This document shows, one piece after another, positions 4,444-50,156 of a stretch of 64,000 nucleotides of DNA. Below the pieces are notes generated by a model, which did no database searches, was not told the origin of the DNA, and worked only from the letters and a program-made list of their open reading frames with translations. The first letter of the stretch is position 1. Every line of letters begins with the position of its first letter. Source of the stretch: Nitrospirota bacterium (GTDB lineage Bacteria; Nitrospirota; UBA9217); the NCBI GenBank assembly GCA_963741205.1, contig CAVUHW010000020.1, positions 224,001 through 288,000 on the forward strand, given 5' to 3'. The translations under genes were made by a program, and so were the position numbers.

Positions 4444-6093
4444 TCAGGTTGCTTTCACATCGCTCACAACGACCCTGTTCTTCCCGCTCCTTTTGGCATC
4501 GTAGAGCGCCTTGTCAGCCGCCGCGATAAAGTCCCGGATGGTCGTTGCATTCTCGGGGCAGGATGCGACCCCGACACTCACGGTAAGACTTAAACGGTGT
4601 TCATCAGCGGAGAAAACAGTGCTTTCGATTTTTTTCCTGATCCTTTCCGCGACGTATTCCCCTCCGGCGCTTCCGGTTGCGATCAGGGTCACGGCGAACT
4701 CCTCCCCCCCATAACGGAAATCGGCGTCCTCGCCCCGCGTCGAACGCAGGATGCGTTGAGCCACTTCCTTCAGGACCTGATCGCCCGCCGGATGACCGTA
4801 CGTATCGTTGACAGCCTTAAAATTATCCACATCGATCATCAGGAGGGTTAATTTCTCGCCGTAGCGCTCATAGCGCGCAAAATTCTTTTCCATGTAATTT
4901 CTGAAATGTCTCTGCGAATAGAGCCCGGTCAACTCGTCGGTGATGGCGATCTCATACAGCGCAGCATTATCCATAGCCACGGCGATATGGCCGCCCATCG
5001 CCTTGACCAGGCTAATCCCGGCAGCGTCGAAAGGGCCTCCGCTTTTTTTTGCGATGATCAAGGCAAGGCGGGCGCCGCTTTTACAGATCGGCAGGTAGAT
5101 TTCTTTTCCTTCCGCGATGACCTCTTCGCAGGTCAGCGCTCCGCTCTGCCAGGAGACGAGAACGCGCCGATCGGGGTCGTCGTCAGGAAACATCCTCCGG
5201 TCGACCTTGTTGTCGCTTTTTCTCCAAACGATCCCGCCGTATTCACTTTTCTCCTTGGGAAAAATGATATCGATCTGGTCCGCATCGAGTATCTCCCGGA
5301 TGATCTCGATAACGGCCTGCCTCGCTTCATCCATGTCGATGGTCTTGCTCAGGCGGTCCACGATCCGGTAGACCAGAGACAGTTCCGTGGATTTAAGAAC
5401 GACCTCGGTGATATATTTGTCCAAACCATTCGACAGAACCCGCGACAGGAGCGGGACGAGAATGACGAGGCACAACAGGCCGGAAGCGGCGATCATGAGT
5501 TCCACCCTGGTGACGAGTGCATACACGGGCCGTACTGAGCGGTCGATGATCAGTTTGCCGTTTATCCGGTCCGTCGCGGGATGGCAGACTTGGCAGGGCT
5601 TTTGATTATAGATGATCACAACCGTCCGCAGCACCTCTTGCCTGCCGACAGGAATGATCATGGTGGTTTCATGAGGGACGGTCACGGGACCCGTATGGCA
5701 GACCCTGCAGGATTGCTCCTGGAACCGGTCGATGAGAACACCGGTCTCGCGTTTGTCGGAAGAATACACAATCCGTCCATTCTTGTTCAGGATGAAGGCC
5801 TTCACGATGGAGGATTCGTGCGACGAGATGGTTTCGAGCGTGCGCTGTATATTGTCGGGATTGCGCACCAGCATGAGGTCGCTGAAGCTCAACCGGATGA
5901 CCTCGCCCAGTTCCCGGGTCTTGGCCTTGCTGTCGTCCAGAAGCCGAACCCGCAGAACCGCCGCAATGGAAACCATGGCGACTACCACGGTAAGCGTCGA
6001 CACGAGGAGGACGCCGATGATGATCCTCCTCTTGTACCCATAGAGCCAGTCGGAAGTCCGCTGGTCGTCGCTGTTTTGTCTGGCACTGTCCAT
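4444..6093 (-). CDS. Membrane diguanylate cyclase with diheme-c periplasmic sensor, GAF and GGDEF domains
   Basis: Two TM segments flank CRVCH and CQVCH; GAF-like region; TDELTGL; RGED I-site followed by RYGGEEF; likely start MDSARQ at 6093. Confidence 0.88.
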   Translation of the reverse strand: MDSARQNSDDQRTSDWLYGYKRRIIIGVLLVSTLTVVVAMVSIAAVLRVRLLDDSKAKTRELGEVIRLSFSDLMLVRNPDNIQRTLETISSHESSIVKAFILNKNGRIVYSSDKRETGVLIDRFQEQSCRVCHTGPVTVPHETTMIIPVGRQEVLRTVVIIYNQKPCQVCHPATDRINGKLIIDRSVRPVYALVTRVELMIAASGLLCLVILVPLLSRVLSNGLDKYITEVVLKSTELSLVYRIVDRLSKTIDMDEARQAVIEIIREILDADQIDIIFPKEKSEYGGIVWRKSDNKVDRRMFPDDDPDRRVLVSWQSGALTCEEVIAEGKEIYLPICKSGARLALIIAKKSGGPFDAAGISLVKAMGGHIAVAMDNAALYEIAITDELTGLYSQRHFRNYMEKNFARYERYGEKLTLLMIDVDNFKAVNDTYGHPAGDQVLKEVAQRILRSTRGEDADFRYGGEEFAVTLIATGSAGGEYVAERIRKKIESTVFSADEHRLSLTVSVGVASCPENATTIRDFIAAADKALYDAKRSGKNRVVVSDVKAT

Positions 6094-6263
6094 AAGGTAT
6101 TGCCAATAGTCCCGGAGACGGGTTTGCGGCGCACCAGTCGCGGATGATGCGGTTTTCGGGAAAAGACAAAACGAAACACACAAAAAAACACGGACCGAGG
6201 ATGCTCACCTCAATCCGTGTCTATGATGATTGTTCACGGCAAACGGAACAAATGCATGGCGGT

Positions 6264-6556: not shown

Positions 6557-7413
6557 TCAACTTTTGACCACCAGAACCGGACAAGGCGCGTAGCCGATGA
6601 CCTTTTCAGTCACGCTCCCCATGAGGAGCCGGCGAAGGCCCGTCCGCCCGTGTGAGCCCAGGACGATCATATCGGCCTTCTGTTCCTGGGCCAGGTTGTT
6701 GACCGCCTGGTACGCTTCAGCCTCGCCCACAAAGGTCTCGGTTTTTACCCCTGCGGCCTCGGCCTGTTTCTTCACATCGGCCACGAAGCCTTTGGCCTTG
6801 CGCACAAGGTCCTCCACCGCGCTGGGGGCCTCCGCGTAGAATTCCGCGGGAACGTCCACGACCGACAGGACCCTCAGCTCCCCGCCGTAGGCCTTGGCAA
6901 AGGAGATCGCGCGCTCCGCCGCGGCCGCGCTGTACTTGGAGCCGTCCGTCGCAAGGACGATCGTTTTCCATCCCACCTTCGTGCCGTTCGGGAACAACGA
7001 GCACGTCCCGTTGGGTGTGCCCGATGACCCTCGCCGTCACAACCCCCACGAGCATGTTCGCGACAGGGCGAAGCCCCCGCCTTCCCATGATGATGAGATC
7101 GCAATTCTCGGCGTCGGCCAGATCGACGATGCGCTCGTAGATTTCCCCTTCTTCGCAGACGGTCTTGATGAGCGCCCGTTCCGATTCCGCCAGCTTCCGC
7201 GCCTCATTCAGGGCGTCATCACAGGGCTTTCGAAGGGAGGCCCTGATGTCCTTGACCCCGAGTGTCTCCATCTCGCCTTCGTAGGGCGGGACCACGGACG
7301 TTACGGTAATCCAGCACTTCTCGTCAACAGCAAACCGGAACGCCTGCTGAGAGCGCGTTCCGGCTTGATTCAGAACCATCGACCGCTACAAGGATCTTTC
7401 TATATTTCCCCAT
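6557..7413 (-). CDS. Tandem-domain universal stress protein (frameshifted)
   Basis: Starts MGKYRKILVAVDGSESS at 7413; DLIIMGRRG; second domain IVLATDGS...LGSHGRTGLRRLLMGSVTEKVIGYAPCPVLVV. Confidence 0.88.
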
Positions 7414-8481
7414 GCTCCAAGGCTCCCGCTGCAAGCTGCAGTCTCTCTGCCTGGCGTCCCTGCCACATGGCACGGAGAACGATGAAAGCGCCGATCAGCA
7501 ATGCGAAGATCATTATAGCAAAGCTGGCGGTCTTGAGCAAGGATACGGTGCCGTCGCCGAGCTTGTCGATCAGCCCGAGCTGGGCAAGGTATACCGGTAC
7601 CATGAGGCCGCGGGAAAAGAGCACGATCACCATGATCAATCCCATCACGACCTTGATCATGAAGGGCTTCACATAGGTGGTGCCGATGGCTCCGAGCTGG
7701 ATGCCGAAGAGCGAGCCGGCGAGGATGATCATGGCGAGCCGGATGTCCACCATGCCGTGGAGCGCATACTTGAGCGAACCGCCCAGGCCCATGACAAAGG
7801 CGATAACCAGCTCCGTGGCCGAAGCCATGAGGCTCGGCGCGCCGAGAACGTAGATCATCGCGGGGACGCCGATGAAACCGCCAACCGCGATCGTGGCGGC
7901 CAGCATGCCCGTGGCAAAACCGAAAGGAATAGTGAAGAGGATGGATACGCGGGCATTGATGCTCTTGAAATAGACCATGGTGCCCGGGATATTGATGGAC
8001 TGGACCCACTTTGCCAGTTTTCCGGTCTTTTCCGCTGTCTGGTATTGCCGGACTTGTAGGTCTTCCAGGCGTCATAGAGAACAAAACCGCCGACCGTAGC
8101 GAGGATCACGACAAAGGCCACGCTGACATAGAGGTTCGAACCTGCGTCGCCGAAGGCCTTCTTGATGTTTTCCTGAATCTGGGCGCCGTAGAGCACCCCC
8201 GCCTCGGCCGATACGCCGAGAACGATGCCGAGTTTCACGTCCACCTGCCCGTATTTGGCCCGCTTGAGCGCGCCCACGAGGGCTTTGGGAAACTTGTGGC
8301 ACATGTTGCTGGCCACTGCCATGAGCCCCGGGACGCCGAGGCTCATCATGCCCGGAGTGAGTACGAATGCGCCGCCGGAACCGATAAATCCGCTGACGAG
8401 GCCGCCGACAAAGCCAACCCCGAACAGGTAGAGGATCGTCATAGCATCAAGATTGATGAAATTCGCCGCAAGGTCATGCAT
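7400..8481 (-). CDS. Sulfite exporter TauE/SafE family permease (frameshifted near 8040)
   Basis: GLVSGFIGSGGAFVLTP and second-repeat GMLAATIAVGGFIGVPAMIYVLG; about 8-10 TM segments. Confidence 0.88.
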
Positions 8482-8482
8482 C

Positions 8483-8734
8483 TTATTTTACCTCCTTTTT
8501 CTTCTTCGAAGCCTCGACGCCGAGCACGGTCCAGAAATGGCCGGTGAATGTGCCGTGAAAATAAGAAAAGACAAATGCCGTGATGATCGGCAACAGCGCA
8601 TACAGTCCGCCTTTCGCGAAGTTGCTGTTGATCAGGTCCTGCTTCGCCAGAAGGGTCGCATAGAGCGCTACGGAAATGATGCCCATAACGATCATCGTGC
8701 CCACCGGCTTCTTCCTTGTGGTGCTTTGTGCCAT
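8483..8734 (-). CDS. Small two-TM protein upstream of TauE/SafE
   Basis: GGAGG RBS, two hydrophobic helices, FSYFHGTFTGHFWTVLG; abuts the tauE start. Confidence 0.8.
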   Translation of the reverse strand: MAQSTTRKKPVGTMIVMGIISVALYATLLAKQDLINSNFAKGGLYALLPIITAFVFSYFHGTFTGHFWTVLGVEASKKKKEVK

Positions 8735-8846: not shown

Positions 8847-9354
8847 TTACGCCCTGGCCCCGTCCATGACCACGACGAGCGGGCATTTCAGTTTCCGCCA
8901 CAATTCTGAAAGCTCTTTGTCATGCTTGTTGCAGTCGTCGTCGAGGCTGGCCGGAGGACTCGATGACCGCGAACAGAATTTCTTTTTCACTGTTCGTATA
9001 TTCGATGATCTGCTGTTTGAGGCAACCCGACCGTGGAACGAGCCGGTGCTTGACTCCCTTCCGCCGCGAGTTCAGCCTCGAACGCCTCGAGGCGCCGGGT
9101 CGCCGCGCTTGCCCGTCGGCACGGGGCGAACTGACAGTAAAGGATGTCGAGCTGCGCGTTGATCCGCTTGGCTGTATTCAGGGCGTATTTCAGTGTCTTC
9201 GCGTCGATCTGTCCCGCTTTGAGCCGAGCAGCACGCGCCTTGATTCCGTCATAAGAGAACGCGCGGTTTCCACATCCCCCTCTTCGGCAAACGAGGCCGC
9301 TGTCAAGCGCATGTTCCACAGCTTCATCATCTTCTTAAATTTAGTCGTTTCCAT
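8847..9354 (-). CDS. USP-like hypothetical protein with N-terminal FAEEG motif (frameshifted)
   Basis: METTKFKKMMKLW...AASFAEEGDVETARSL, then TLKYALNTAKRINAQLDIL, ending LKCPLVVVMDGARA* (USP-like CPLVVV tail). Confidence 0.7.
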
Positions 9355-9410: not shown

Positions 9411-9587
9411 TTAGTCGGCGCGCAGTTCTTTTCTATTCGCCGGTCTCTGGTAGTCATGCATGGAAGGCCGATCGGTCTTTCTGGGTCTGTCTTCATTCAT
9501 GATCTCGCGCGCCATCTCGAATTCACCTTCTTCGGCGAACGCCGCCGCCACCATGGCTGTTTCGAATTTCTTAAATATGTTCTTCAT
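9411..9587 (-). CDS. Small hypothetical protein with AAFAEEGE motif
   Basis: MKNIFKKFETAMVAAAFAEEGEFEMAREIM with AGGAGG RBS; first gene after the sigma54 promoter. Confidence 0.75.
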   Translation of the reverse strand: MKNIFKKFETAMVAAAFAEEGEFEMAREIMNEDRPRKTDRPSMHDYQRPANRKELRAD

Positions 9588-9625: not shown

Positions 9626-9642
9626 TACAAGCTCCGTGCCAA
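9626..9642 (-). promoter_or_regulatory. sigma54 (-24/-12) promoter
   Basis: Minus strand TTGGCAC-GGAGC-TTGTA versus consensus TGGCAC-N5-TTGCW; a sigma54 activator is encoded on the divergent arm. Confidence 0.75.
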
Positions 9643-9701: not shown

Positions 9702-9845
9702 CGTTTTAAAACAATGCTTTTAGGAGTAGTGGTGTGATCGTTTTAAAATGCAATGCCTTTTCTCGATAACCGTTTACCCATTTGAAAATACAATAATGTT
9801 TTATTGGGTGTTGCAATAGAATTGAAAACGTTGTAAAATGCAACC
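9702..9845. promoter_or_regulatory. Repeated candidate enhancer (UAS) sites
   Basis: CGTTTTAAAACAATGC (9702), CGTTTTAAAATGCAATGC (9739), CGTTGTAAAATGCAACC (9829; near-palindromic GTTGyA-AAA-TGCAAC). Confidence 0.6.
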
Positions 9846-9917: not shown

Positions 9918-11920
9918 ATGAAATTTTTCAAAAAATCAGAAGACGACCACCGGGATGCCCTCATAGAAGAACTGCGCCAGAAGATATCGTCGGCGCTGAT
10001 GCCGGATGCCGTCCTGAAGATCGCCGAACAGGAACTGGACGTCATTTCGCGAAGATCAGCCCCTCGTCCGCCGAATACACCATCGGCATCACCTACCTTG
10101 ATTATCTCCTGTCTCTTCCCTGGAACAGGAAAACGGAAGACAATCTCGATCTTGCGCGCGCGGAACGGATCATGAACGAAGAACCATTACGGCCTGGACA
10201 AGATTAAGGAGCGGGTGCTGGAACACCTGGCCGTCAAGGTGCTCATGATGAGCAAAAAAGCGCGCATTCTGATCGTCGATGACGAGGAGATCGCCCGCAA
10301 AAACCTCGCCCACGTGCTCACAAAAGAAGAATACGACGTGGTCACGGCCGCTGACGGCGAGAGTGCGCTCAAGGCAACTGGAGGCTGAGGAGTTCGACGT
10401 GGTGCTCACGGATCTTCGCATGGGCAGGATCGACGGGATGGACCTTCTGGACCGTATCAAGGTCCGCGTTTCCGGAGACCCGGGTCATCATGGTGACGGG
10501 CTTCGCCACGGTCCCGTCAGCCATCGAGGCCATGCAGAAGGGCGCCTTCCATTACATCGCAAAGCCTTTCAAGCTGGACGAGGTGCGGGCGGCGATCAAA
10601 CTGGCGCTGGAGAAAAAGACGATCAGGGCGAACACGAAAGGCTCGGTCCTCTGTTTCGCCGGCCCCCCGGGGACGGGAAAGACATCCCTGGGCCGGTCTA
10701 TTGCCCGCGCCCTCGGCCGCAAGTTCACGCGCATCAGCCTGGGCGGCCTCAAGGACGAGGCGGACATCCGCGGACACCGGCGCACCTACGTGGGGGCTAA
10801 ACCCGGCAGGGTGATCGAGGAGATCCGCCGCGTGGAATCGGCCAATCCCGTGATCATGCTCGACGAGTTGGACAAGATCGGCCGGGACTTCAAAGGTGAC
10901 CCCGAGTCGGCCCTGCTCGAGGTGCTCGACCCGGAGCAAAACTGCGCCTTCGTGGACCATTATCTGGACGCCCCCTTCGACCTGTCGAGCGTTATGTTCA
11001 TCCTCACCGCGAACATGCTCGATACGGTCCCCGCCCCGCTCCGCGACCGCATGGAGGTCATCGAGTTCTCCGGCTACACCCAGGAGGAAAAGTCGCATAT
11101 CGCGAGCCGGTTCCTCTGCCCAAAACAGGTCCGGGAGAAGGGGCTGTCCCCCGACGATGTCTCCTTCACCGACGAAGCCATCACAAAGATCATCCAGGAA
11201 TACACGCGCGAGGCAGGGATAAGGAACCTCGAACGGAAGATCGCGACCATCTGCCGCAAAATAGCGAAGGAGTCCGTCGAAAGCCGGGGCGCGCCGCAGC
11301 CGGTCCGGATTACCCCGGAAGCCGTGGAGCGCTATCTCGGCAGGCGCAGGTACCACTTCGACGTCATCGAGGAACAGGACCGGGTCGGCGTGGCCACGGG
11401 CCTCGTACGCACCGAAACCGGCGGCGAGATCATCTTCGTCGAGGCCGCGAAAATGAAAGGCACGAAGGAACTGATCATCACCGGATCACTCGGCGACGTC
11501 ATGCGCGAATCGGCGCAGGCGGCGCTGTCCTACATCCGGAGCAACTCCGGCGAGTTCGGCATCGCGGACGATTTTTTTGAATACCACGATATCCACATCC
11601 ATGTGCCCTCGGGCGCGATCCAGAAGGACGGCCCTTCGGCGGGCGTCACTATTCTCGTCGCCCTTGCCTCTCTCCTGACCCGCCGGCCGGCCCGGCGCGA
11701 CATAGCCATGACCGGCGAAATCACCCTCACCGGACGGATACTCCCTGTGGGAGGCATCCGCGAAAAGGTGCTTGCCGCGAAACGCGCGATGGTCAGGACC
11801 ATGATTGTGCCCCTGCGCAACCGCGACGACGTGGAGGAACTGACCGACGACGTGAAGGCCGGCATCGAAATCCGACTCGCCGACACCGTCAAGGATGTCG
11901 TGAGCGCGGTGCTGATGTAA
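9918..11920 (+). CDS. lon: ATP-dependent Lon protease with inserted receiver (REC) domain and no classical N-domain (frameshifted)
   Basis: [10 protein letters not shown] and [17 protein letters not shown], then REC (ILIVDDE, VLTDLRM, MVTGF, IAKPF), then [22 protein letters not shown] (Ser) and GGIREK (Lys). Confidence 0.9.
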
Positions 11921-12027
11921 GATACGGAAGCAGTTGCAGGCGCATAGTTCAGCGCACAGGTAGTAAAACCATGCCAGCGTGACTAACTCTGCTACACTGC
12001 TACTTGCTACTTGCTTTAAGTATAACC

Positions 12028-13608
12028 ATGTTCAACTACCAGCCCAGCATACGACAGAAGATCACCCTCGGCTACTACGCGATCGTCGCGATGATTATCG
12101 GCCTGACCATGTTCACCTTCCTCGAACTGCGCTTCATCGAACAGAAGATCATCTTCGGCGAGACCATCTCGGAATTTTTCGACACGACCCTTGAGCTCCG
12201 TCGCTTCGAGAAGAACTTTTTTCTGTATGAAGAGCGATCGGACTACGACGAGAACATAAATTATATTAACAAGGCGCAAGACATCATCGATCGCAACGTC
12301 CGCGGGTTCAGCACACTCGCCTCGTCCGGGCAAATCTCCCTGCTCCAGGTCAGCCTCAAGAACTACCGGAATCTTATGGAGCTTTATGCGGTAACGGACG
12401 AACGCTACGCTGCCCGCAGGAACATTCTGGCAGGGAAAATACGGCTGGCCGGCAAGGACATCATCGCCATAGCGGAAGAGATCTCGAAGACCGAGCGCAA
12501 AAGCCTGCAGCAGCTCCTGAGCAGCTCCCAGCGCATTCTCATCATCTCCATCGTCATCCTTTCCGTCTCCGTTATCAGCATCGGTCAGATACTCTCGCGC
12601 ATGGTGGTGAGGCCGCTGAAGTCCCTGGAAGAAAGCATGGGGGTCATCGCGGAGGGAAAGTTCGAGCGCGTGGCCATCGATTCGAAGGACCGGGAGATCG
12701 TCTCGCTCACCAAGGCCTTCAATAAGATGCTGAAGCAACTGGAGCTGCATGAGCGGCACCTGATCCAGTCGGAGAAGCTCGCTTCCCTGGGCACGCTGCT
12801 CTCCGGCGTAGCGCACGAGTTGAACAACCCCCTCTCGAACATATCCTCCTCGAACCAGATATTGATGGAGGAGCTCAAAGAGGGCCTGGGGTCCGGGATC
12901 GCGGGCCGGGATAAAGCGGCAAGCGCGGAGGAGAGCGCGGCAGGGATCGCCCCCGACCTTCGTTTCTCGTCTCTCGACCCTGAGTTCATCCTGGAGCTGA
13001 GCAGCCAGATCAACGACCAGACCGACCGCGCGCGTAACATCGTCCGCTCGCTCCTGGATTTTTCACGGGACCGTGAGTTTAAAAAGGAGCGGGTGTCCCT
13101 CCGGAAGATCATCGAAGAGACGATTCAATTCGTCAAGGGCCAGGTGCCGACAAATGTCGCGGTCACGCTCGCCGTTCCCGACGACATCGTCATTGTCGCC
13201 GACAAGCAGCGCATGCAACAGGTTTTTCTGAACCTGATCAAAAACGCCATAGAGGCAATCACGTCAAACGTGGGATTGGTCTCGATCAAGGCGGAGAAAC
13301 GGCGGGCGATGGACGACTTCGACGACGAAAAGATCGGCATCTCCAACTACCTCAAGTACCGCGGCAAATGCACCCTCGATCAGGACACCGTCGACATAGA
13401 AATCCGGGACAACGGATCCGGCATCCCCCTCGACCTCGTCCCCAAGGTATTCGACCCCTTTTTCACGACCAAGGACGTCGGCAAGGGCTCCGGGCTCGGA
13501 CTCTTCATCGTCCACGAGATCATCGAGGAGCATGACGGCTGCATTGCCGTGGACAGCGAGCCGGGAAAAGGAACGGCGTTCCTGATCCGGCTGCCGCGTA
13601 AGGAGTAA
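12028..13608 (+). CDS. Sensor histidine kinase (periplasmic sensor, HAMP, HisKA, HATPase)
   Basis: Two TM segments; VAHELNNPL H-box; NLIKNA, DNGSG, FDPFFTTK, GSGLGL. Confidence 0.95.
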   Translation: MFNYQPSIRQKITLGYYAIVAMIIGLTMFTFLELRFIEQKIIFGETISEFFDTTLELRRFEKNFFLYEERSDYDENINYINKAQDIIDRNVRGFSTLASSGQISLLQVSLKNYRNLMELYAVTDERYAARRNILAGKIRLAGKDIIAIAEEISKTERKSLQQLLSSSQRILIISIVILSVSVISIGQILSRMVVRPLKSLEESMGVIAEGKFERVAIDSKDREIVSLTKAFNKMLKQLELHERHLIQSEKLASLGTLLSGVAHELNNPLSNISSSNQILMEELKEGLGSGIAGRDKAASAEESAAGIAPDLRFSSLDPEFILELSSQINDQTDRARNIVRSLLDFSRDREFKKERVSLRKIIEETIQFVKGQVPTNVAVTLAVPDDIVIVADKQRMQQVFLNLIKNAIEAITSNVGLVSIKAEKRRAMDDFDDEKIGISNYLKYRGKCTLDQDTVDIEIRDNGSGIPLDLVPKVFDPFFTTKDVGKGSGLGLFIVHEIIEEHDGCIAVDSEPGKGTAFLIRLPRKE

Positions 13609-13615
13609 TCTATTC

Positions 13616-14977
13616 ATGCAAGAAACCGCAAAGCTACTCATTGTCGATGACGAACGGATCGCGCTCCGGAACCTCGAGCATGTGATGAAAAAAGAAGGCT
13701 ACGAAGTGACCGGCACGCAGAGCGGGCCGAACGCCCTCAAGCTCCTCGAAGATCAGCAATTCGATGTGGTTCTTACCGACCTCCGCATGGAAAAGGTCGA
13801 CGGCATGCAGATCCTCAGGAAAACCCGCGAGCTCTACCCGGACACGGAAGTGATCATGATTACCGGATATGCGACCCTCGATTCGGCGGTTGAGTCGATG
13901 AAACACGGCGCATTCTACTATATCGCGAAACCCTTCAAACTCGAGGAAGTGCGCAAGGTCGTTCAGGAGGCTTTGCATAAGGTCCGTCTCAAGATGGAGA
14001 ACCGCCACCTCCGGGAGCAGCTCGACAGCTACCAGGGCAAGGTCAAGATCATTACTCAGGACCCGTCCATGCAGAAACTCCTCGAGACAGCCCGGCAGAT
14101 CGCGCCCACGGACTGCAATGTACTTATCACCGGCGAGAGCGGCACGGGCAAGGAGCTCTTCGCCCGGTTCATTCACCTGAACAGCAATCGCGCAACCGGC
14201 CCCTTTTTCGCCATCAACTGCGGCGCCTTTACCGAGGAACTCCTGTCGAACGAGCTTTTCGGCCACGAAAAGGGCGCTTTTACCGGGGCGAACAATATGA
14301 AGAAAGGCCTGATCGAGATGGCGTCGGGGGGCACGCTGTTCATGGATGAGGTCACGGAGATGCCGTCGTCCATGCAGGTAAAGCTCCTCCGGGTCATCCA
14401 GGAAAAGGAGGTCCTTCGCGTCGGCGGCACCGAGCCGACCAAGGTGGACGTGCGGCTCGTCGCTGCCACGAACCGGGACATTCACGATTCCATGAAGACC
14501 GGCTCTTTCCGGCAGGACCTCTACTTCCGCCTGAACGTCGTCTCGCTCCGCATCCCGCCCCTCGCGGAACGGAGGGACGACATTCCCCTCCTCTCCTACT
14601 ATTTTCTGAAGAAATACTCCGTGCTCATGAAAAAAGAGGTCAAGGAGATCGCCGAAGATGTGATCGCCCTGCTCATGAACTATGACTTTCCGGGAAACGT
14701 GCGCGAACTCGAGAACATCATGGAGCGCGGGGTGGCGCTCTCGAACGGCCAGATCATCGAGACGGGCCATCTGCCCGAGGACCTGCGGGAGCTCAGCATC
14801 AAGACTTTTCGTAAAAAGGAGGGCAAGATCCCGTCTCTCGATGAGCAGGAAGAGTCCTATATCAAGTGGGTTCTCGCCGAGGTGGGCGGCAACAAGACCC
14901 TCGCCTCGCAGATCCTCGGCATCGACCGCGTCTCGCTGTGGCGAAAACTCAAGAAGTACGGGCTTGAAGCGGAATAG
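13616..14977 (+). CDS. sigma54-dependent response regulator (NtrC/AtoC family)
   Basis: REC + GESGTGKE + GAFTGA + PGNVREL + Fis-type HTH (LGIDRVSLWRKLK). Confidence 0.96.
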   Translation: MQETAKLLIVDDERIALRNLEHVMKKEGYEVTGTQSGPNALKLLEDQQFDVVLTDLRMEKVDGMQILRKTRELYPDTEVIMITGYATLDSAVESMKHGAFYYIAKPFKLEEVRKVVQEALHKVRLKMENRHLREQLDSYQGKVKIITQDPSMQKLLETARQIAPTDCNVLITGESGTGKELFARFIHLNSNRATGPFFAINCGAFTEELLSNELFGHEKGAFTGANNMKKGLIEMASGGTLFMDEVTEMPSSMQVKLLRVIQEKEVLRVGGTEPTKVDVRLVAATNRDIHDSMKTGSFRQDLYFRLNVVSLRIPPLAERRDDIPLLSYYFLKKYSVLMKKEVKEIAEDVIALLMNYDFPGNVRELENIMERGVALSNGQIIETGHLPEDLRELSIKTFRKKEGKIPSLDEQEESYIKWVLAEVGGNKTLASQILGIDRVSLWRKLKKYGLEAE

Positions 14978-26211: not shown

Positions 26212-29200
26212 ATGAAACTGCAGATCGCAAAACTGACCCGACCGCGCCTTACCGGAGTCGTAGAGCGCCGTCGCCTGTTTGATCAGCTTGACCGTATCAG
26301 CAAGACAAAGATCGCGTGGATCTCCGCTCCGGCAGGCTCCGGAAAGACGACGCTGGTGGCCAGCTGGCTCGATGCCCGGAAATTGCCTTGTCTGTGGTAC
26401 CAGGCAGATGAGGGCGACTCGGACATCGCTACGTTCTTCTCATACCTGGGTATCGCGGCAAAGCTTGCAGCCCCGCGGTATCGCAAACCACTGCCTCACC
26501 TCACTCGAGAATATCTGTCCAGCGTTACCGCATTCACTAAAAGCTTTTTCGAAGCGCTGTTCGGCAGAATGAAGCCTCCCTTTTGCTTCGTCATTGACAA
26601 CTATCAAAATGTTCCGCCGGAATCGCGGTTCCATGAGGTGGTCCGTGAAGGGCTGTGGACGGTCCCCGACGGCATGACTGTAGTTATTATCAGCAGGTCC
26701 GATCCGCCTCCAATGATGTCGCGGCTTCACATGAACAGACGTTTGGATATCATCAGGGCGGAGGAGATGGCGTTCACGTTCGAGGAGTCCCGGAAGCTTA
26801 TTACTTCACAGACGAGGGAAAAGCCACCTGACGATGTTATAAAGGCACTGTTCCAAAAGACGGTCGGATGGGCCGCGGGTTTGATACTTTTAACAAGGAG
26901 CGCCGCCCTGGGGGGCGACCTTGCCGAGTGGGATGATGTTCCCGTCGAACAGTTATACGACTACTTTGCGACCGAGGTTTACGAGCGGATAGATGATGAG
27001 ATGCGCACCTTCCTGCTCCTGACCGCTTTTCTCCCGAGAGTTACTGTCAGGGCTGCGGATGCAATTACCGGTAATAAAAATTCGGAACAGATATTGTCCC
27101 GTCTCAGTCGCACAAACTTTTTCACTGCGCGTCATGCAACCTCTGCGTTCGTATCCTACCAGTACAACCCTCTTTTCAGGGATTTTCTTCTGAATCGGGC
27201 CGGGGACCGATTCAGCCGCGCTGAAATCAACGGGATCAAGAAAAAGGCGGCTGAGATTCTCGAAACCGAAGGCCAGACCGAGGATGCGGTGCGGCTCCTG
27301 ATCGAGGCCGGAGAGTGGCAGGGGCTGATCGATCTCGTCATCCGCCATGCAACTGGGCTTATGACTGCGGGAAGATTTCGGACTCTCGAAGCATGGATGG
27401 ACAACATCCCCCAGACGATGACGGAGCAAAACGCGTGGCTCCTGTACTGGAAGGCATCGTGCCATATTACCTCAAGACCCGTGGAAGCCAGAAGCATGTT
27501 CGAAAGAGCATACGAGCTATCTCTGGACGCGCAGGATCCCACGGGATCCTTTCTCTCCTGGACCGGCGTGGTGAATACCTACATGTACGAGTGGCAGGAT
27601 TTTCAACCACTCGACCGATGGATTACAGCATTTGCGGAACTCCTGAGAAAGTACGAGGTCTTCCCTTCTCCGGAGGTCGAGGAGCGCGCCACATCCGCGA
27701 TCTTCGCGGCCATGATGCTCCGCCAACCCCAGCACCCTGATCTCCCTGTATGGGCGAAGCGCGTACAGGCAGTTATGCAAAGCACCGCGGACCCGTTCCG
27801 CCGCATATTCATCGGAAATAGTCTCCTCCTCTATTATCTCTGGACCGGCAGGATCAGCGAGGCAGGAGCGCTCGTGTCAATGCTTTCGCCTGTCATCAAG
27901 TCTGCCCAAGGAGCGTCTCTCCCCAAGTTCCGGTGTTTGAGGTCAATTGCACTCTATCACTTTTATGCATCGCAGCCGGAGCTCGGCCTGAGGACCGTCG
28001 AACAGGGACTCAGACTCGCTGAGGAAACCGACGTTCATCAAACAGATATGATGCTTTACGGAGCGGCAATCTATCATGCCGCACTTCTGGGAGATGTGGA
28101 CATGGCTGAAAGTTATCTGAAACGGATGGCGTTCGCTCGCAATCACAGCAGGCGGCTACGCTGATATCTTCTATGCCAGTCAGTCATCTCTTGAAGCTCT
28201 TCTTCGGGGCGATCATGAGACAGCAGTATTCCAGGCGGAAATCAGCGTTCGCCTCGCGGACGAGGCCGGTGTTCCCCTGATCTTGAACGCTGTTGAGTCA
28301 ATCGCTGGTGTTTATCCTGACGGAGGCACATCAATATGACAAGATCAGGCTGCACATTTCCGAACTCAGGAAAAGAGCAGAGTCGACCAGGAGCACGCAC
28401 ATCGAGGCATGGTGCTCGAGTTGCGAGGCCCAGCTTGCCCTTCAGGACGGCAATGACTCGCTTTTTGCCGAGCGCTTTAAACGGGCGATTGACGTATGCA
28501 AAGAAACAGGACTCAGGCTTTTGACGGTTCCGCCCTCAGCATTTTCTCGCATCTGCGCAAAAGCGCTTGATCTGAATCTCGAGACGGATTTTGTCAGAAA
28601 ACTTATCACCCTGAACAAACTCATCCCTGATAGCTCCACGGCTGTCGCGGACTCCTGGCCCTTCCCTCTCAAGGTCTACACGCTGGGCAGATACACACTG
28701 CTGCGGGACGAGAAGCCCGTTTTGTCCTCTGGCAAGGCCCAGCAGAAGCCGCTCGCGATGCTGAAGGCTTTAATCGCCTTCGGCGGGAAGGGTGTTTCTC
28801 AATCGCAGCTCATCGATGCCTTGTGGCCTGAAGCGGAAGGCGACGCCGCCAACCGGAACCTGGATACCACACTCCACCGCTTACGGAAGCTTTTGGGTGA
28901 TGATGAGGCGATCCTGCTTCATGAAGGACAGGTGAGCCTGAACAACACGCGTGTATGGACTGATGCGTGGGAGTTCGAACGTCTCCTGTGCCAGGTTGAA
29001 GATATGTGGAAACTAGAAGGAGAAAGGGCATGAGTCCGTAGCCGCTAAAGATCCGGCATGCCCCGATCCGGCAGCCCACCGTCCGGAACCCGATCTTGAG
29101 GAAACGATACGACTGACTGAAAAGGCTCTTGCTCTTTATAAAGGCCATTTTCTTCCCGGGGACGTTAAAGATACCTGTACTGTTTCGCTCAGAGAGCGTT

Positions 29201-29481
29201 TGCGCGCGAAATTTCTCCATTACACAAAGACCCTTGGCAGATACCGGCAGCAGTCAGGCCGCTACGATCTCGCGGTGGAGTGTTACCAGAGAGGGATAGA
29301 AATAGACGACCTTGCCGAGGAGCTGTATCAGCAGCTTATAATCTGCCACCAGAAACTGGGCCAGGAAGCAGAGGCCGTCAAAGTCTACTACCGCTGCCGC
29401 GCAATGCTTCATAAGGCATTCGGACTTGAGCCCTCCACAAAAACCAGGGAAATATATTCCTCTATACACCGCAACAAGTAA
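26212..29481 (+). CDS. Large MalT-like ATPase-TPR regulator with C-terminal SARP/BTAD domain (three frameshifted fragments)
   Basis: APAGSGKTTL, WYQADEGD, GWAAGL; LKVYTLGR, LWPEAEGDAANRNLDTTLHRLRKLLG; AEELYQQLIICH...EPS. Confidence 0.88.
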
Positions 29482-29572
29482 TTCTCGGCATTTCACCCCG
29501 CATCTTCCCCTTTTTCATCAGTTTGTTACTTTTTTACACACATTTTCTACAAAAAATTTACTTTTTCTTTCA

Positions 29573-29609
29573 ATCTGTAAGTCATCTGTAAGTCGGCCTA
29601 TGCTATTCT
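29573..29609 (+). promoter_or_regulatory. SARP-type tandem direct repeat next to an extended -10
   Basis: Perfect (ATCTGTAAGTC)x2 at 29573-29594; TGcTATTCT at 29601-29609. Confidence 0.65.
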
Positions 29610-29643
29610 ATGATATAAAATTACAAGGACAGAAAGATCAATA

Positions 29644-29829
29644 ATGGAAAATTACATCATTCGCATATACCGGCGGGATCCTGATGATCCGCTCAAGCCC
29701 GTCGGGATGGTTGAGGTCGTGGAGACCTCGGAAACGAGGACCTTTACGCATGCGAGTGAGCTTGTCGATATCATATGTTCCGCGGGTGATTCATCCGAAC
29801 CGGATTCTAGTAACAGAAGACACACATGA
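29644..29829 (+). CDS. Small hypothetical protein downstream of the BTAD regulator
   Basis: MENYIIRIYRRD...VGMVEVVET...TF...ELVDII; directly follows the tandem-repeat promoter. Confidence 0.65.
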   Translation: MENYIIRIYRRDPDDPLKPVGMVEVVETSETRTFTHASELVDIICSAGDSSEPDSSNRRHT

Positions 29830-30101
29830 TAATTCGCGGATTGAAAGTATCGGCAGTGGTTCTTTGGTCTTCATCACAAATTTTTTTTCACAATAAGTGT
29901 CGGGTATGTATGTGATTCACCTGAATTCCATCAGGATATTCAGAAGAAAGGGGACGGAGGCTGCTTCATCGAAGACAGATGGGGACCTCGTATATTGCAT
30001 GATGCGAAATCGTATTGATTAATTGGGGAGAGAATATCCTTGTTATTTTCCGAACGTGTTTCCATGAAGTAATTAAAAATACATTAAAGGGGGATAGTAT
30101 C

Positions 30102-31043
30102 ATGAAGAAAGCACTATCGATAGTATTGTTGTTGTCGGGTCTTTTTCTCTACGGCTGCGGCGCAGGCGGGAACAACAATGCGTCATCGGATGGCGGCAAT
30201 TCCACTTCGAATCCTGGAGGAGGGCCTCAACCTCAACTTGGTCCTGCTCAAGTCTTTACACTAAACCTTGTTGACGCTGACGCGTCAAGAGCAGCTCGTG
30301 CAACTACTTCTCGGCACACGTCGCAGCCAGCTGCCACAGTGTCAGGGTTGTGATCAGGCTATATTCTAATGTAACAACAACTCATCAAGAATGTCTGTAC
30401 ACTATGACGACGAAGGAAATCCGACGTCATTATTGCCGGTACATGTCATGATGTAGGAGTACACAAAACTACTGAGGTCTATAAGGATATTCAGGATGTG
30501 CCGTATTCTGCGTCCTCCGTTCAAGTAGTCAATTCCGGCAGCAGACGGTTATACCATTGATGTTATAACCAGCCAGCTAACAGGTACACTACTCATAACA
30601 TCTTAAAATATGGACAGGCGACAGATGTCAATGTTGGTGGTAACAACCCCACAAGTGGCGACTATCACCATAAGTAGCGTTGGTAGCAACTTAATATGTC
30701 GGTTACCGATAACGTTTTATCTTCAACTCCCACTCATCCAGTATCGTTTGATGTTACTGTCAATAATGGACTGCCATTTGCTCCTACCTATTCGATGATC
30801 ATGAGCTTCGGCAGCAATACATTCCACTGTGCCAGCAGCTCAACTAACACATGCACCATTAACGCACCGAAATCTACTGCTTCGGGAGGAGCAGTTGATT
30901 TGAAGGGACGTTTACCCTTGACAGATGCATTCTTGAAGCCGGGCGAATAGAGGGCGGATGGATACGTTCCTTCCCATACTTAGCTGGTGAAAGAGTATGG
31001 TATAATTTGAGCCCGCTCGTATCGGTAACTATGTAACTCCTTA
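30102..31043 (+). CDS. Low-GC putative lipoprotein, Gly/Ser/Thr-rich (multiple frameshifts; possibly a pseudogene)
   Basis: MKKALSIVLLLSGLFLYGC lipobox; later beta-rich fragments in other frames; 3' end approximate. Confidence 0.55.
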
Positions 31044-31095
31044 ATAGCTTCCCCAAGCTCAGCACCAGGAATTTTGCTGTCAATATATCCGCAAT

Positions 31096-31131
31096 AAAGG
31101 CAGCCATGATCAACATTGGCTGCCTTTTTTT
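31096..31131 (+). terminator. Rho-independent terminator
   Basis: AAAGGCAGCCA-loop-TGGCTGCCTTT followed by a T run. Confidence 0.8.
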
Positions 31132-31379
31132 GTCGCAGCGTGAACCGGATTTTTAGCTGATTTGAGACTCACTATCTCGAACGGAGGAAAGTCCCAAGCG
31201 AAAGAAGCGACACAACCACACCACCGAGGAAAAGATGCTCATCCTCAAACATCATTTGGTCGAAGGAGTTCCCGTTTACAATTTGCGAAGAGTATCAGTT
31301 GCGGCCCATGGTTTTCTCTATCCGGCAGCAGCATCTTATTTCCAGGGCTGTTTATTGATTGATGCCAATTGAAAACAAA

Positions 31380-32769: not shown

Positions 32770-33674
32770 CTAAACTTTATCCACGGACTTTTGCCCGAAC
32801 AGTCCCGCCGGTCGAATGACGAGCGTAATGATCAGGACGACGAAGGCAAAGGCGTCTTTATACACGCTCGAAACGTAGCTTGCGCCGAAGTTCTCGATGA
32901 GACCGAGCATGAAGCCTCCGAGCATGGCGCCGGGAATGCTCCCGATCCCTCCGAGGACCGCCGCGGTGAATGCCTTGATGCCGGCGAGATATCCCATGAA
33001 GAAGTGCACCACGCCGTAATAGAGCGTGACCATCACGCCCGCCACGGCCGCGAGCGCCGACCCGATCATGAAGGTCACGGAAATGACCTGGTTGATGTCG
33101 ATCCCCACGAGGCCCGCCATGACGCGGTCCTGCGAGGTGGCGCGCATGGCCTTGCCGAGCCTGGTTTTCGAGACGAAGAGATGAAGAACAATCATGAGCA
33201 GGACCGACGCGCTCAGGATGAAGATCTGCGCGGGCGATACGTTCGCGCCGAAGACGGTCAAGTCCTTCGGAGGGGAGCATCGGCGGAAGGTTCTTGTACT
33301 CCTTGCCCTGGGCGAGCATGACGACGTTCTGGAGGATGATCGACATGCCCACGGCGCTGATGAGCGGCGCCAGTTTTGTGGCGTTCCTGAGCGGCCGGTA
33401 GGCGATCCGTTCGATCACAGCGCCGTAGGCTGCGCAAAAAGCCATGGACACGAGCACCGTGACCAGGAGCGAAAGAGGCAGGCTGTAGGCCGTCAGTCCC
33501 AGCGCGGTCAAGCACCCCGAGGACGATGATCCCCAGATAGGCCCCGAGCATGTACACCTCGCCGTGGGCGAAGTTGATGAGCTGGAGGATGCCGTAGACC
33601 ATGGTGTACCCCAGCGCGATGAGCGCATACACCGCGCCGAGGGCCAGGCCGTTGATGAGCTGTTGGGTGAACAT
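32770..33674 (-). CDS. livH: Branched-chain amino acid ABC transporter permease LivH (frameshifted)
   Basis: [23 protein letters not shown]; [13 protein letters not shown]; [17 protein letters not shown]. Confidence 0.92.
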
Positions 33675-33684
33675 GATTACTAAT

Positions 33685-33793
33685 AAAGTAGGAAGTAAGG
33701 AAGATACGAGGGTAAGAAAGAAACATCGGAGTGCTGATCTTCCTTACCTTCCTTACTTCTTCCTTCTTCCTTCTCACCTCTACCTTCCTACTT
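33685..33793. repeat. Purine/pyrimidine-strand inverted repeat (AGGAAG-type units)
   Basis: AAGTAGGAAGTAAGGAAG... followed by CTTCCTTACCTTCCTTACTTCTTCC... Confidence 0.65.
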
Positions 33794-33799
33794 TCTGAT

Positions 33800-34902
33800 T
33801 TACTGCACTTCCACGAACTTCCCGTCCTTGACCTGCCAGATCACATAGGGCGCCTTGGTCACGTCGCCGTGCTCGTCGAACGAGATATCCCCGAAGGCCC
33901 CGTGAAACGTCGTCTTCGCTATATATTCGGCGATCTTGGCGCCGTCCGTCGATCCCGTCTGGGCAATGGCGGTCAGGATGATATTCGCCGCATCATAGGA
34001 ATAGATCGAATACGGTCCCGGGTCGCCGTATTTGGCCTTATATTTCTGCATGAACGACTGAGCCGACGCAAGCCCGGCCGGCTCCTTGCCGAAAGTTACG
34101 TAGGTCCCCTCGGCCGCCTTGCCCGCTATGCTGATGAACGTCGGATCATACACTCCGTCGCCCGTGATCATGGGTATGTTCAGCCCTATTTCCTTTGCCT
34201 GCCTGCACCAGCCTGCCGGCCTCGGGATAGATGCCTCCGAAGAAGTACAGGTCGGGTTTGTTTTCCTTGATCGTCGTGAGCACCGCCTTGTAATCGGGGT
34301 CGCGCTGAATGATGCCGCCGTAATAGACCACGGTCGCCCTGTCGCCGAGCGCCTTTTTGAAATAATCGGCCAGCCCCTGGCCATAGGCCGTCTTGTCGTG
34401 GATGATCGCCACGCGCCTGGGATGGAGCTTATTCAGAACAAACTCGGCGGCAATGCGGCCCTGCTGGTCATCGGTGCCGCATACCCGGAAGACCCGTTTG
34501 AACCCCTGCCGGGTGAGCTGCGGATTCGTGGTTGCCGGAGAGATCATGACGATGTTCGCGTCATTGATAGTATTTCGAAGCGGGAATGGAACAGCTCGAG
34601 TTCCAGTGGCCGACGACGGCCGCCGCTTTCTGGTTGATGAACTTGTTCGCGATGGACACCGCCTGCTTGGGGTCCGCCTGGTCGTCCCCGGCCAGGAGGA
34701 CGATCTTCTTCCCCAGGACGCCGCCCTTCTCGTTCCATTCCGCAACGGCGAGCTCCGCGGCGTTCTTCAGGTCCATGCCCATCTTGCTCTGGTCGCCGGT
34801 CATGGGGCCTGCCGCGCCGATCCTGATGACGTTCTCCTCCTGACGGACACAGCCTGACAGTATGACAAAGAGAATCGATGAGATGACGATGAGTTTTTTC
34901 AC
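33800..34902 (-). CDS. livK: Branched-chain amino acid ABC transporter substrate-binding lipoprotein (frameshifted)
   Basis: LSGC lipobox; IGAAGPMTG, DDQADP, GHWNSS, HDKTAYGQG, YSYDA. Confidence 0.88.
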
Positions 34903-34934
34903 GTTTGACCTCCTGGTCTCTGCAATTCCCGCAT

Positions 34935-35552
34935 TCAGTCTCCCGGATGATCCGGATCATCTCTTCCGCCGCGCGTCCGATGTCCGGGGCTGAAAGCACC
35001 GCCGAGATCACGGCCGCGCCGTCCGCACCGGCCCGTATCACATCCGCGACATTCGCGTGATTGATGCCGCCGATGGCGATGACCGGGATCGAGACCGACT
35101 GCCGTATGAGGGCGAGGTTCCCGGTCCCCTGCGTTGCTCCGGCTTCCTTCGTCGTGGTGTCGAAAGATAGGCCCAAACCCGATATAGTCGGCCCCCGCCT
35201 CTTCCGCCGCCCTGGCCTGCTCGATGCTGTGGGTCGAGATGCCGATGATCTTGTCGCTGCCCAGAAGCCTTCTCGCCGCTTCGATCGGCAGATCGTCCTG
35301 CCCGAGATGCACGCCGTCGGCATCCGCCGCCGCCGCGATGTCCGCGTGATCGTTCAGGATGAACAGCGCCTGCGACCGGCGGGCCACGGCCGCGAGCAGC
35401 CGCGCCGTTTCGTAAATCGTCCTTCTCGGACCGCTTTTGTTCCGGTACTGGAACAACCTGACGCCCGGCGGACAATGCCCGGGCCATTGCCGTTTCCGGG
35501 CCGGCGCGGAGAAGGTCCTGATCAAGGATCAGGCAAAGCCCTTTGAGATCAA
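34935..35552 (-). CDS. thiE: Thiamine-phosphate synthase (frameshifted; ends approximate)
   Basis: [47 protein letters not shown]. Confidence 0.88.
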
Positions 35553-36896
35553 GCCGGCGAATTGAGGTACCGCTCCATGAATTTTGTCGAGATGTTGCCC
35601 GCCTGGAAGTCCGGGTCCGCGAGGATCTTCTTGTGCATGGGGATCGTCGTCTTCACGCCTTCGATGATGAACTCGTCAAGCGCGCGCTGCATGCGCATGA
35701 TCGCCTCTTCCCGCGTCGCCGCATGGACGATGAGCTTTGCGATCATCGAATCGTAATAGGGAGGGATCACGTACTGCGTGTACGCGGCGGTCTCCACCCG
35801 GACGCCGAGTCCGCCCGGAGGATTGAAGGCCGTGATGGTCCCGGGGGAAGGCGTAAACTTGTCCGGGTCCTCCGCGTTGATCCTGCACTCGATGCTGTGC
35901 CCTCTCACCGTAATCTGGTCCTGGCTGATCGAAAGCGGAAGTCCGGCCGCCACGCGGATCTGCTCCTTCACGAGGTCAATGCCGGTCACCATCTCGGTCA
36001 CCGGGTGCTCGACCTGGATGCGGGTATTCATCTCCATGAAGTAGAATTTTCTGTTCTCGTCCATGAGAAACTCGATCGTTCCGGCGTTCCGGTAGCGGAC
36101 CGCCTTCGCGATGGCCACGGCCATCTCGCCCATCTGTTTCCGCAGACCCGCGTCGACGATGACGGAAGGCGCTTCTTCGATGAGTTTCTGGTGCCTGCGC
36201 TGGATCGAGCACTCGCGCTCGCCGAGATAGACGGTATTGCCCTTTTCATCGGCCATGAGCTGTATCTCGATGTGGCGGGGCTGGAGGATATATTTTTCGA
36301 TATACACGTCGGCATTGCTGAACGACGCAAGCGCTTCGGCCTGGGCCATGACAAAGGCATTGGCGAAATTCGCTTCTTCCATCACCACGCGCATGCCCTT
36401 GCCGCCGCCGCCCGCCGCCGCCTTCACGATCACGGGAAAACCGAGTTCCCTCGCGATCTCAATGGCGCTGCTCTCTTCGGTCACGACGCCGTCGCTGCCG
36501 GGCAGCACCGGCACGCCCGCCTTCTGCGCGGTCTCCCGGGCCTTGGCCTTGTCGCCCATGAGTTTGATGCTTTCCGGGCTGGGTCCGATGAACCGCAGGC
36601 CCGTGGAATTGCAGACCTCGGCGAAGCTGGCGTTCTCGGCCAGAAACCCGTAGCCGGGGTGGATGGCCTCGGTATCGGTGATCTCCGCAGCGCTGATGAT
36701 GCTCGGGAACGTTCAGGTAGCTGTCGGCGCTTTTCGGCGGACCGATGCACACGCTCTGGTCGGCAAAGCGCACATGGAGCGAGTTGGCGTCAGCCGTCGA
36801 ATGGACCGCAACGGTCTTGATGCCCATCTCCTTGCAGGCACGGATGATCCGGAGCGCGATCTCGCCGCGGTTGGCTATCAGAATTTTTTTAAACAC
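35549..36896 (-). CDS. accC: Acetyl-CoA carboxylase biotin carboxylase (frameshift near 36710)
   Basis: [46 protein letters not shown]. Confidence 0.95.
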
Positions 36897-36952
36897 CCAA
36901 ACACCTCAGATATTCTATTCTTTGCAGGACCTGCTATGGTCTCGAATCTCAT

Positions 36953-49362: not shown

Positions 49363-50002
49363 TTAAGCAAATCCCGTCTTCTTGAGCAGCTCCAGATTCA
49401 CGCCGCCTTCAACCCTTCCGGACAAAAGACGCTCCACATACTTGCCGATAATGTCCGCCTCCAGGTTCACGCTGTCGCCGGCTGACTTGAAACCCAGAGT
49501 CGTCAATTTTGCCGTGTGGGGGATCATGGCGATGGAGAAACCGGTCTTGTCCGTGTCCGCCACCGTCAGGCTGATTCCGTCAATGGCGATGGAGCCCTTT
49601 TTGATGACGTAGCGAAGGACCTCGTCCGGCGCATCGAAGAATATCCTCCAGCCGTTGCCCTCGACACGCCTCTCGCGGATTCGGCCGACCGCGTCCACGT
49701 GGCCGCTCACCAGATGACCGCCGATCCGGGCGGAAAGCTGGAGCGCCCGTTCCAGGTTCACCTTCGCGCCGATCGTGAGTTCCCCCAGGTTCGTGACCTT
49801 GAGCGTTTCGGCCGCGACATCCGCGGAGAACTCGCTTTTTGTTCAGATCGACAACGGTGAGACAGACCCCATTCACACAGATGCTTTCGCCCAGGGCCGT
49901 GCCGTCAAGGACCGTGGATGCGGAAATCGTGAGCCGGGCGGCGCCTGTTTCCCGCCTGAGAGACTTCACGCTTCCCATCTCTTCCACGATCCCGGTGAAC
50001 AT
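49363..50002 (-). CDS. ribE: Riboflavin synthase (frameshifted)
   Basis: MFTGIVEE, NGVCLTV, GGHLVSGHVD, DGISLT, IPHT. Confidence 0.95.
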
Positions 50003-50156
50003 GAGTGATGAACGACCTCTTTAGTCTGAGAATGATCGCCTGCCCGCACGAAGGACGGGGCACGCGTAACACGCAGCAACAACCTGATAAAAAAGTCTTT
50101 TCTTCGAAGAATTGCGCTGATATAAGCTGTAATGACAATGAAGACGGAGACTCGTT

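Follow-up and report, generated by a model that had tools for sequence, protein, structure and literature searches.

In a 64,000-nucleotide stretch of a Nitrospirota genome (contig CAVUHW010000020.1, positions 224,001 to 288,000; hereafter the window), the lon gene at 9918-11920 on the forward strand encodes a Lon protease that carries a complete two-component receiver (REC) domain in front of its Walker A strand. The gene is a member of the REC-Lon family of DVU3303 from Desulfovibrio (Nitratidesulfovibrio) vulgaris Hildenborough, a kind of protein that is already known and that is biochemically untouched. As a whole, the data are likely best explained by a DVU3303-type REC-Lon, probably intact in the organism, for which proteolysis would be a second output of a two-component signal shared with the neighbouring sigma-54-dependent regulator.

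Rajeev 2011 (PMC3333781) presents DVU3303-DVU3305 as a 'three-component system', describes DVU3303 as a response regulator with a truncated Lon for which phosphorylation-dependent proteolysis was proposed, and reports orthologous systems in Thermodesulfovibrio yellowstonii (Nitrospirota) and in other organisms. A sequence-only reading of the window, made before this analysis, had arrived at the same idea of a phosphorylation-switched protease; the idea is plausible for the reasons given below, and its novelty belongs to the 2011 proposal. That reading had also stated that it knew of no biochemical characterisation of such an architecture, and nothing contradicted this in the Creative Commons-licensed PubMed Central (PMC) papers and bioRxiv literature that we searched, where no biochemistry on a REC-Lon fusion was found.

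A receiver domain inserted in the Lon ATPase

When the four frame changes that interrupt the gene (see below) are read through, the Pfam profile of the receiver, Response_reg (PF00072), is matched in three successive frames, at profile positions 1-36, 38-66 and 69-111 of 111 (E values 1e-6, 2e-6 and 2e-7); the last frame then goes on with matches to AAA (1e-24), Lon_lid (2e-23) and Lon_C (4e-81), an architecture that in the window is far beyond chance. The motifs of the Ser-Lys dyad, DGPSAG and GGIREK, are in the window open reading frame (ORF). The dyad is intact, as the sequence-only reading had said, and all the strings that it quoted are present. It had also been right about the missing N-domain: LON_substr_bdg (PF02190) was found by Pfam neither in the window pieces nor in P0001, an intact relative of 665 aa, the canonical Lon P0134 being positive in the same search.

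P0001 scores 737.4 with NCBIfam TIGR00763 (cut-off 608.05), and its REC matches PF00072 with an E value of 3e-33. Aligned with the solved Lon of B. subtilis (3M6A; E value 2e-168 overall), its residues 19-111 correspond to residues 13-105 of the structure and its residues 236-661 to residues 104-527. Because these flanks align contiguously to 3M6A, the alignment identifies the REC of about 124 residues as a clean insertion, with nothing deleted, in the loop that leads from the last pre-AAA helix to the Walker A strand, which is the position given for it in the earlier reading. The short helical region that precedes the ATPase in LonA is kept, and the globular substrate-binding N-domain is lost.

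The receiver has kept its chemistry. In an alignment of 34 sequences D120, D121, D164 and K214 are found in 34/34, while position 192 is T in 32 and S in 2, and position 211 is Y in 30 and F in 4. Equally invariant (34/34) are the Lon residues, namely Walker A K253, Walker B D314 and E315, pore-loop Y289, S572 and K615. An AlphaFold2 model of REC-Lon built from these 34 sequences (mean predicted local distance difference test, pLDDT, 82.4; predicted template modelling score, pTM, 0.72) has five N-terminal helices (8-111), a three-residue link, a canonical REC of five strands and five helices (115-233), a low-confidence, non-helical linker of 7 residues (234-240, pLDDT <50) and then the AAA+ strand (242-246). 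In a Foldseek comparison of this model with the PDB all matches were LonA structures, none of them with a receiver, and the best solved relative of the Lon REC is NtrC1 (E value 6e-22).

The same loop is occupied by something else in one further protein, encoded in a Treponema metagenome-assembled genome (MAG; locus L050, 4376-7165, forward strand), a full-length LonA with a low-complexity insert of about 115 aa rich in Ser, Gln, Leu and Pro. The loop before the Walker A strand appears to tolerate insertions.

REC-Lon in sulfate reducers and Nitrospirota

A search for REC within Lon had been suggested in the sequence-only reading. Run with the last frame piece of the window gene as query, it gave 119 of the 120 clusters listed with PF00072 plus Lon domains, most of them of 664-676 aa. 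Started from a Desulfovibrionaceae member it gave 120 of the 120 clusters listed, with matches in cultured Fundidesulfovibrio, Humidesulfovibrio, Desulfovibrio sp. TomC and Thermodesulforhabdus norvegica. Both domains are thus carried by 239/240 clusters listed. The names under which REC-Lons are deposited vary, and include 'endopeptidase La', 'S16 family serine protease', 'response regulator' and 'Lon protease 2'.

We also scanned species-representative genomes by alignment of the first 268 residues, keeping 80 loci from at least 600 pattern matches, a selection that is not a census. The match was long enough to hold the REC at 20 of the 80 loci; 59 were ordinary Lons in which the two flanks are adjacent, and the remaining one was the Treponema locus described above. 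Going by record title or NCBI phylum label, 6 of the 20 REC-bearing loci are from Nitrospirota and 10 from sulfate-reducing Thermodesulfobacteriota lineages (Desulfobacter, Desulfonema, Desulfococcaceae, Desulfohalobiaceae, Desulfobulbales, Desulfobulbus, Desulfomonilaceae, Desulfovibrionaceae and Desulfobacterales); the others are 3 MAGs labelled Pseudomonadota and 1 MAG with Deltaproteobacteria in its title, assigned by NCBI to Myxococcota. Among sulfate reducers and Nitrospirota the family is widespread.

A search of representatives at 50% identity found REC in 6/13 proteins checked by Pfam, a proportion that is no gauge of family size, since canonical and tandem-AAA Lons outrank the distant REC-Lons there. 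The tandem-AAA proteins, which outrank ordinary Lon too, are of an unusual architecture: P0121, P0124, P0125, P0127 and P0128 (889-1379 aa) carry a single Lon_C preceded by two or three AAA+ and lid modules in tandem. Another protein, P0138 (568 aa), is a REC-Lon that ends early and runs on into sequence with the FAE-x-GE motif of the small proteins described below; it is probably the product of a chimeric or frameshifted contig that fuses the neighbouring small gene.

Two paralogous receivers beside one kinase

The lon gene is followed by genes for a membrane histidine kinase and a sigma-54-dependent response regulator, whose own REC was compared with that of Lon. Within a genome the two receivers are on average 51% identical (range 47-56%, 16 pairs), against 33% and 32% for the other RECs in the same flanks, which identifies the Lon REC, at the level of sequence, as a close paralogue of the REC of the neighbouring regulator. 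The first receiver helix, which is the main determinant of kinase-partner specificity, is nearly identical between the two, and both RECs probably share one kinase. In a tree of 44 RECs the two receivers of a genome are never sisters, and each of the two types branches according to taxonomy; the duplication that gave rise to the Lon and regulator RECs is therefore old.

Gene neighbourhood and putative control sites

The genes around lon, the domains of its product and the putative control sites are listed in Table 1, together with the number of REC-Lon loci at which the neighbouring genes recur.

Table 1. Features of the REC-Lon region of the window. Occurrences among the 20 REC-Lon loci are lower bounds, as several loci end at contig edges.
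Feature	Position	Strand	Description	REC-Lon loci
REC-Lon gene (lon)	9918..11920	+	~666 codons with the four indels read through; N-terminal helices, REC, AAA+, lid, S16 protease
Frame break 1	10046..10051	+	after ELDVI; two extra bases or one missing compared with P0001
Frame break 2	10181..10184	+	RIMNE / NHYGLDK; one extra base compared with intact relatives
Frame break 3	10372..10375	+	inside REC, after ESALK; one extra base compared with intact relatives
Frame break 4	10466..10469	+	inside REC, after RIKVR; one extra base compared with intact relatives
Receiver (REC) domain	10266..10600	+	PF00072 profile 1-111 over three frames
Phospho-acceptor Asp codon (TDL)	10411-10413	+	D164, invariant in 34/34
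Lon AAA+ module and lid	10649..11287	+	Walker A GPPGTGKT at 10661-10684
Lon_C S16 protease domain	11309..11914	+	Pfam Lon_C
Catalytic Ser and Lys codons	11636-11638 (Ser), 11765-11767 (Lys)	+	gapless alignment to P0001 S572, K615
Membrane histidine kinase	12004..13608	+	HAMP-HisKA-HATPase_c (Pfam); same operon as lon	15/20 (beside regulator)
Sigma-54-dependent response regulator	13616..14977	+	REC, AAA+ with GAFTGA, HTH_8 (Pfam)	16/20 (one partial)
58-aa protein	9411..9587	-	unnamed family, motif FAE-x-GE; divergent from lon
~170-aa gene	8847..9354	-	N-terminal FAE-x-GE, USP-like C-terminus; split between frames
83-aa membrane protein	8483..8734	-	conserved beside TauE	14/20
TauE/SafE-type anion exporter	7403..8487	-	split between two frames	14/20
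Tandem universal stress protein (USP)	6560..7385	-	halves in different frames	12/20
Putative regulator site GTTGTAAAATGCAAC	9830..9844	+	one mismatch to DVU3305 motif GTTGC-N5-GCAAC; 88 nt before lon ATG
Weaker repeats of regulator motif	9739-9753, 9779-9793
Putative sigma-54 promoter TGGCACGGAGCTTGTA	9626..9641	-	only match with <=1 mismatch; 39 nt before small-protein ATG
Sigma-70-like promoter	9811..9839	+	TTGCAA-17-TAAAAT; consensus match only

A profile of the small FAE-x-GE protein matched 10/20 REC-Lon loci and 0/60 other Lon loci. Members of the small-protein family have 53-61 aa, the motif A-x-x-F-A-E-x-G-E and a basic C-terminal tail, and the FAE-x-GE motif also heads the USP-like protein of about 170 aa encoded in the same operon. 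Outside the window the motif is seen, for instance, at 6490-6657 of L001, 6550-6726 of L006 and 6236-6622 of L007, all on the reverse strand. Neither Pfam nor NCBIfam assigned a family to the small proteins, to the protein of ~170 aa or to the 83-aa membrane protein; the sole lead was a weak Usp match (E value 0.004) in the L006 copy, and an Atlas search with the small protein returned only unnamed 'hypothetical protein' clusters. The FAE-x-GE proteins are candidate partners or substrates of REC-Lon. A complex prediction for the full-length REC-Lon of L001 and the neighbouring 56-aa FAE-x-GE protein scored 0.00 in two runs made with no controls, and is evidence neither way.

Sites that may control the two operons have counterparts in D. 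vulgaris, for which the supplement of PMC3333781 gives a DVU3305 motif, GTTGCGATATGCAAC, at -89 of DVU3303 and a sigma-54 promoter, TTGGCACGGGGCTTGTT, at -39 of DVU3302. The putative regulator site of the window is at -88 of lon, and the putative sigma-54 promoter is at -39, as in D. vulgaris; position and similarity to the published sites are what speaks for both. Directly upstream of lon we found no sigma-54 promoter, only a sigma-70-like consensus match. The -10 element of this sole match overlaps the regulator-site match, an arrangement that would fit autoregulation of the lon-kinase-regulator operon.

Two further observations concern the rest of the window. The stress operon is adjoined, at 4447-6204 on the reverse strand, by a gene for a GGDEF diguanylate cyclase with a membrane sensor region. 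Farther away, a stretch of about 1.9 kb at 29500-31350 that follows a fragment of a BTAD/TPR regulator (29017-29478) has a lower G+C content (0.49-0.51), no ORF of at least 120 aa and no Pfam or Rfam match.

A proposed pathway and the role of the receiver

The pathway that we propose would start at the membrane kinase encoded just downstream of lon, which would sense a stress and phosphorylate two paralogous receivers. One of them is on the sigma-54 activator, which would turn on the divergent operon and with it the FAE-x-GE proteins, the membrane protein, the TauE exporter and the USP; matches to the promoter and to the binding site are seen here, and their function may be as in D. vulgaris, the organism in which it was shown. 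In the other, the Lon REC, which would lie beside the nucleotide pocket, phosphorylation would switch the ATPase and protease, probably on, and the activated REC-Lon would degrade a specific component of the pathway, so that proteolysis would be the second, post-translational output of the same two-component signal. A phosphorylation switch is plausible because the receiver chemistry is conserved, the kinase gene is adjacent and the REC is paralogous to that of the regulator.

Genetic data from D. vulgaris bear on this proposal. Trotter 2023 (PMC10102598) reports a pairwise cofitness >0.9 for DVU3303-DVU3305 and a chlorate phenotype. The regulon is also listed by Kazakov et al. 2015 (PMC4641369).

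The strongest form of the proposal, in which the REC is a built-in allosteric gate and phosphorylation of the Asp switches the Lon hexamer on to degrade a component of its own pathway, we put forward only tentatively, judging it possible and still rather doubtful. If it were so, the best substrate candidates may be the locus-specific FAE-x-GE proteins, whose motif is common to two genes of the induced operon.

The switch could also work in the opposite sense, with REC-Lon clearing pathway proteins in the unstimulated cell and being inhibited once the kinase is active. Sequence does not fix the sign, the closest solved REC is that of NtrC1, and NtrC1/DctD-type receivers work by relieving or imposing an inhibition. 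The same-sign fitness of the lon, kinase and regulator mutants of D. vulgaris (PMC10102598) fits activation better, with the caveat of polarity, and we regard an off-switch as unlikely.

The Lon activity could also be independent of phosphorylation, the REC being a structural pseudo-receiver or a sink that drains phosphate from the kinase and so damps the sigma-54 regulator. Branched pathways with sink receivers exist, and here one kinase probably serves both RECs, which are close paralogues. For a pseudo-receiver, however, conservation of the phospho-acceptor pocket and the T/Y switch in 34/34 sequences across two phyla is unexpected. A pure sink would be expected to give a phenotype opposite to those of the kinase and regulator mutants, yet the cofitness reported for D. 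vulgaris in PMC10102598 is >0.9, a value in which polarity could mask such an effect. We consider this explanation quite unlikely.

Several points weigh against our interpretation as a whole. The copy of lon in the window is broken as it stands. Orthology to DVU3303 rests on architecture, synteny, motifs and the statement of PMC3333781 itself. Neither the regulator motif (24 found, 27.8 expected from shuffles) nor the sigma-54 pattern (19 found, 24.1 expected from shuffles) is more frequent in the window than by chance. In the model the pLDDT <50 of the linker makes it uninformative on contact between REC and ATPase. In the receiver tree the split of Lon and regulator RECs from the others has weak support (79/73) with only 7 outgroup RECs, taken from the flanks, and the Lon RECs do not form a clade of their own. 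Whether phosphorylation would turn the activity on or off is a guess, and, since lon comes first in the operon, part of the cofitness could be due to polarity.

Integrity of the gene

As assembled, 9918-11920 holds no single open frame, the largest ORF being one of 476 aa that starts with ATG (10490-11920). Three-frame translation gives one continuous Lon-like protein with frame changes near 10048, 10183, 10373 and 10467; the sequence-only reading had the number of breaks right and had set them at about 10050, 10200, 10370 and 10470, positions that are here adjusted. The frame pieces are 9918-~10049, ~10046-10180, 10185-10373, 10375-10467 and 10469-11920. The breaks fall within domains, two of them in the REC, and none between domains. 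All lesions are indels: no stop lies inside the frame pieces, and the start codon and the catalytic residues are intact. The pieces are overall about 79-92% identical to P0001, and the last one (483 aa) is 92% identical to both P0001 and P0002, each intact, and aligns with P0001 with no gap.

Lon is not alone in this state. At least 9 further genes of the window are split between frames, with successive parts of one Pfam profile in different frames: those for TauE (profile parts 1-125 and 122-234), the tandem USP, the ~170-aa protein, a BPD_transp_2 permease, the Peripla_BP_6 periplasmic binding protein (spread over three frames), thiamine-phosphate synthase, biotin carboxylase, riboflavin synthase and OsmC. 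The breaks are clustered, with split genes at 6560-8487, 8847-9354, 32773-36905, 49366-50020 and 53304-53773, and thiE (TMP-TENI), accC and ribE are among the genes affected. The kinase and regulator genes downstream of lon are unbroken, and the kinase is a single intact high-scoring segment pair (HSP) against L001. Because other genes of the window are split likewise, the lesions in lon are indels only and its last piece aligns at 92% identity with no gap, we read the four breaks, with considerable confidence, as assembly errors and not as a lon-specific pseudogene. In the organism, a Nitrospirota relative, the gene most likely yields an intact product of about 666 aa. The window has the look of an unpolished assembly; its lon gene is ordinary for its lineage, and the gene calls made here need checking, the sequence having to be polished before they can be trusted.

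Were the four indels real, REC-Lon would be dead in this organism, leaving at most a remnant of 476 aa from the ATG at 10490 (the end of the REC, the AAA+ module and the protease). The concentration of four breaks within ~430 nt with none in the next 1450 nt, and the presence of the ATG-started ORF, would suit such a pseudogene. Against it stand the genes that are split in the same manner, with the housekeeping biotin carboxylase, riboflavin synthase and thiamine-phosphate synthase among them, the identity of the pieces to P0001 and the fact that no nonsense or missense lesion affects a functional residue, and we hold a true pseudogene to be improbable. Programmed frameshifting was rejected, as the four breaks lie within 430 nt and inside conserved domains, and the relatives have a plain ORF.

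The possibility that REC and Lon belong to two genes, joined in error when the breaks are read through, an outcome the sequence-only reading had named as fatal to its own proposal, is favoured only by the broken state of the window copy and is practically negligible, being refuted by the relatives: the gene is one unbroken HSP in a single frame in 20/20 REC-bearing loci, REC and Lon are one protein in 239/240 clusters listed, and the breaks lie inside the domains.

Comparison with known systems

The closest known system is that of DVU3303. The window and D. vulgaris have their lon, kinase and sigma-54 regulator genes in one and the same order, and in both a divergent operon encodes UspA and a membrane protein along with small hypothetical proteins; according to PMC3333781, DVU3305 regulates DVU3302-3298, of which three encode hypothetical proteins, one a membrane protein and one a UspA protein. 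The Desulfovibrionaceae relatives Fundidesulfovibrio and Humidesulfovibrio share the REC-Lon architecture. The window system differs in belonging to another phylum and in that its copy of the gene is broken by indels. As DVU3303 is genetically tractable and its regulon is defined, the question of the switch is directly testable there.

With canonical LonA (E. coli, B. subtilis, M. taiwanensis; TIGR00763) REC-Lon shares the pre-AAA helices, the AAA+ module, the lid and the S16 protease with its Ser-Lys dyad, whereas canonical LonA has the LON_substr_bdg N-domain, which REC-Lon lacks, and REC-Lon has the additional 124-residue REC before the Walker A strand. The NtrC1/DctD-type activators resemble it in another respect, an NtrC1-like REC directly upstream of the strand that leads to the AAA+ P-loop. 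In these activators, however, the REC precedes the whole AAA+ module, while in REC-Lon it follows the first AAA+ helix, and the AAA+ module of REC-Lon is of the Lon type and has no GAFTGA. Its linker, short and modelled with low confidence, is also unlike the linker of the inactive NtrC1/DctD dimer in having no long coiled-coil helix.

RssB and CpdR are receiver proteins that steer proteolysis by ClpXP, acting in trans as adaptors, and we know of no two-component-regulated proteolysis other than through trans adaptors such as these. REC-Lon has in common with them the tie between two-component phosphorylation and AAA+ proteolysis, and differs in that its receiver and its protease are on one chain. 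With the receiver built into the protease itself, no path from signal to degradation could be shorter, and REC-Lon, if the proposed switch is true, would be the first AAA+ protease whose activity is the direct output of a two-component system in cis.

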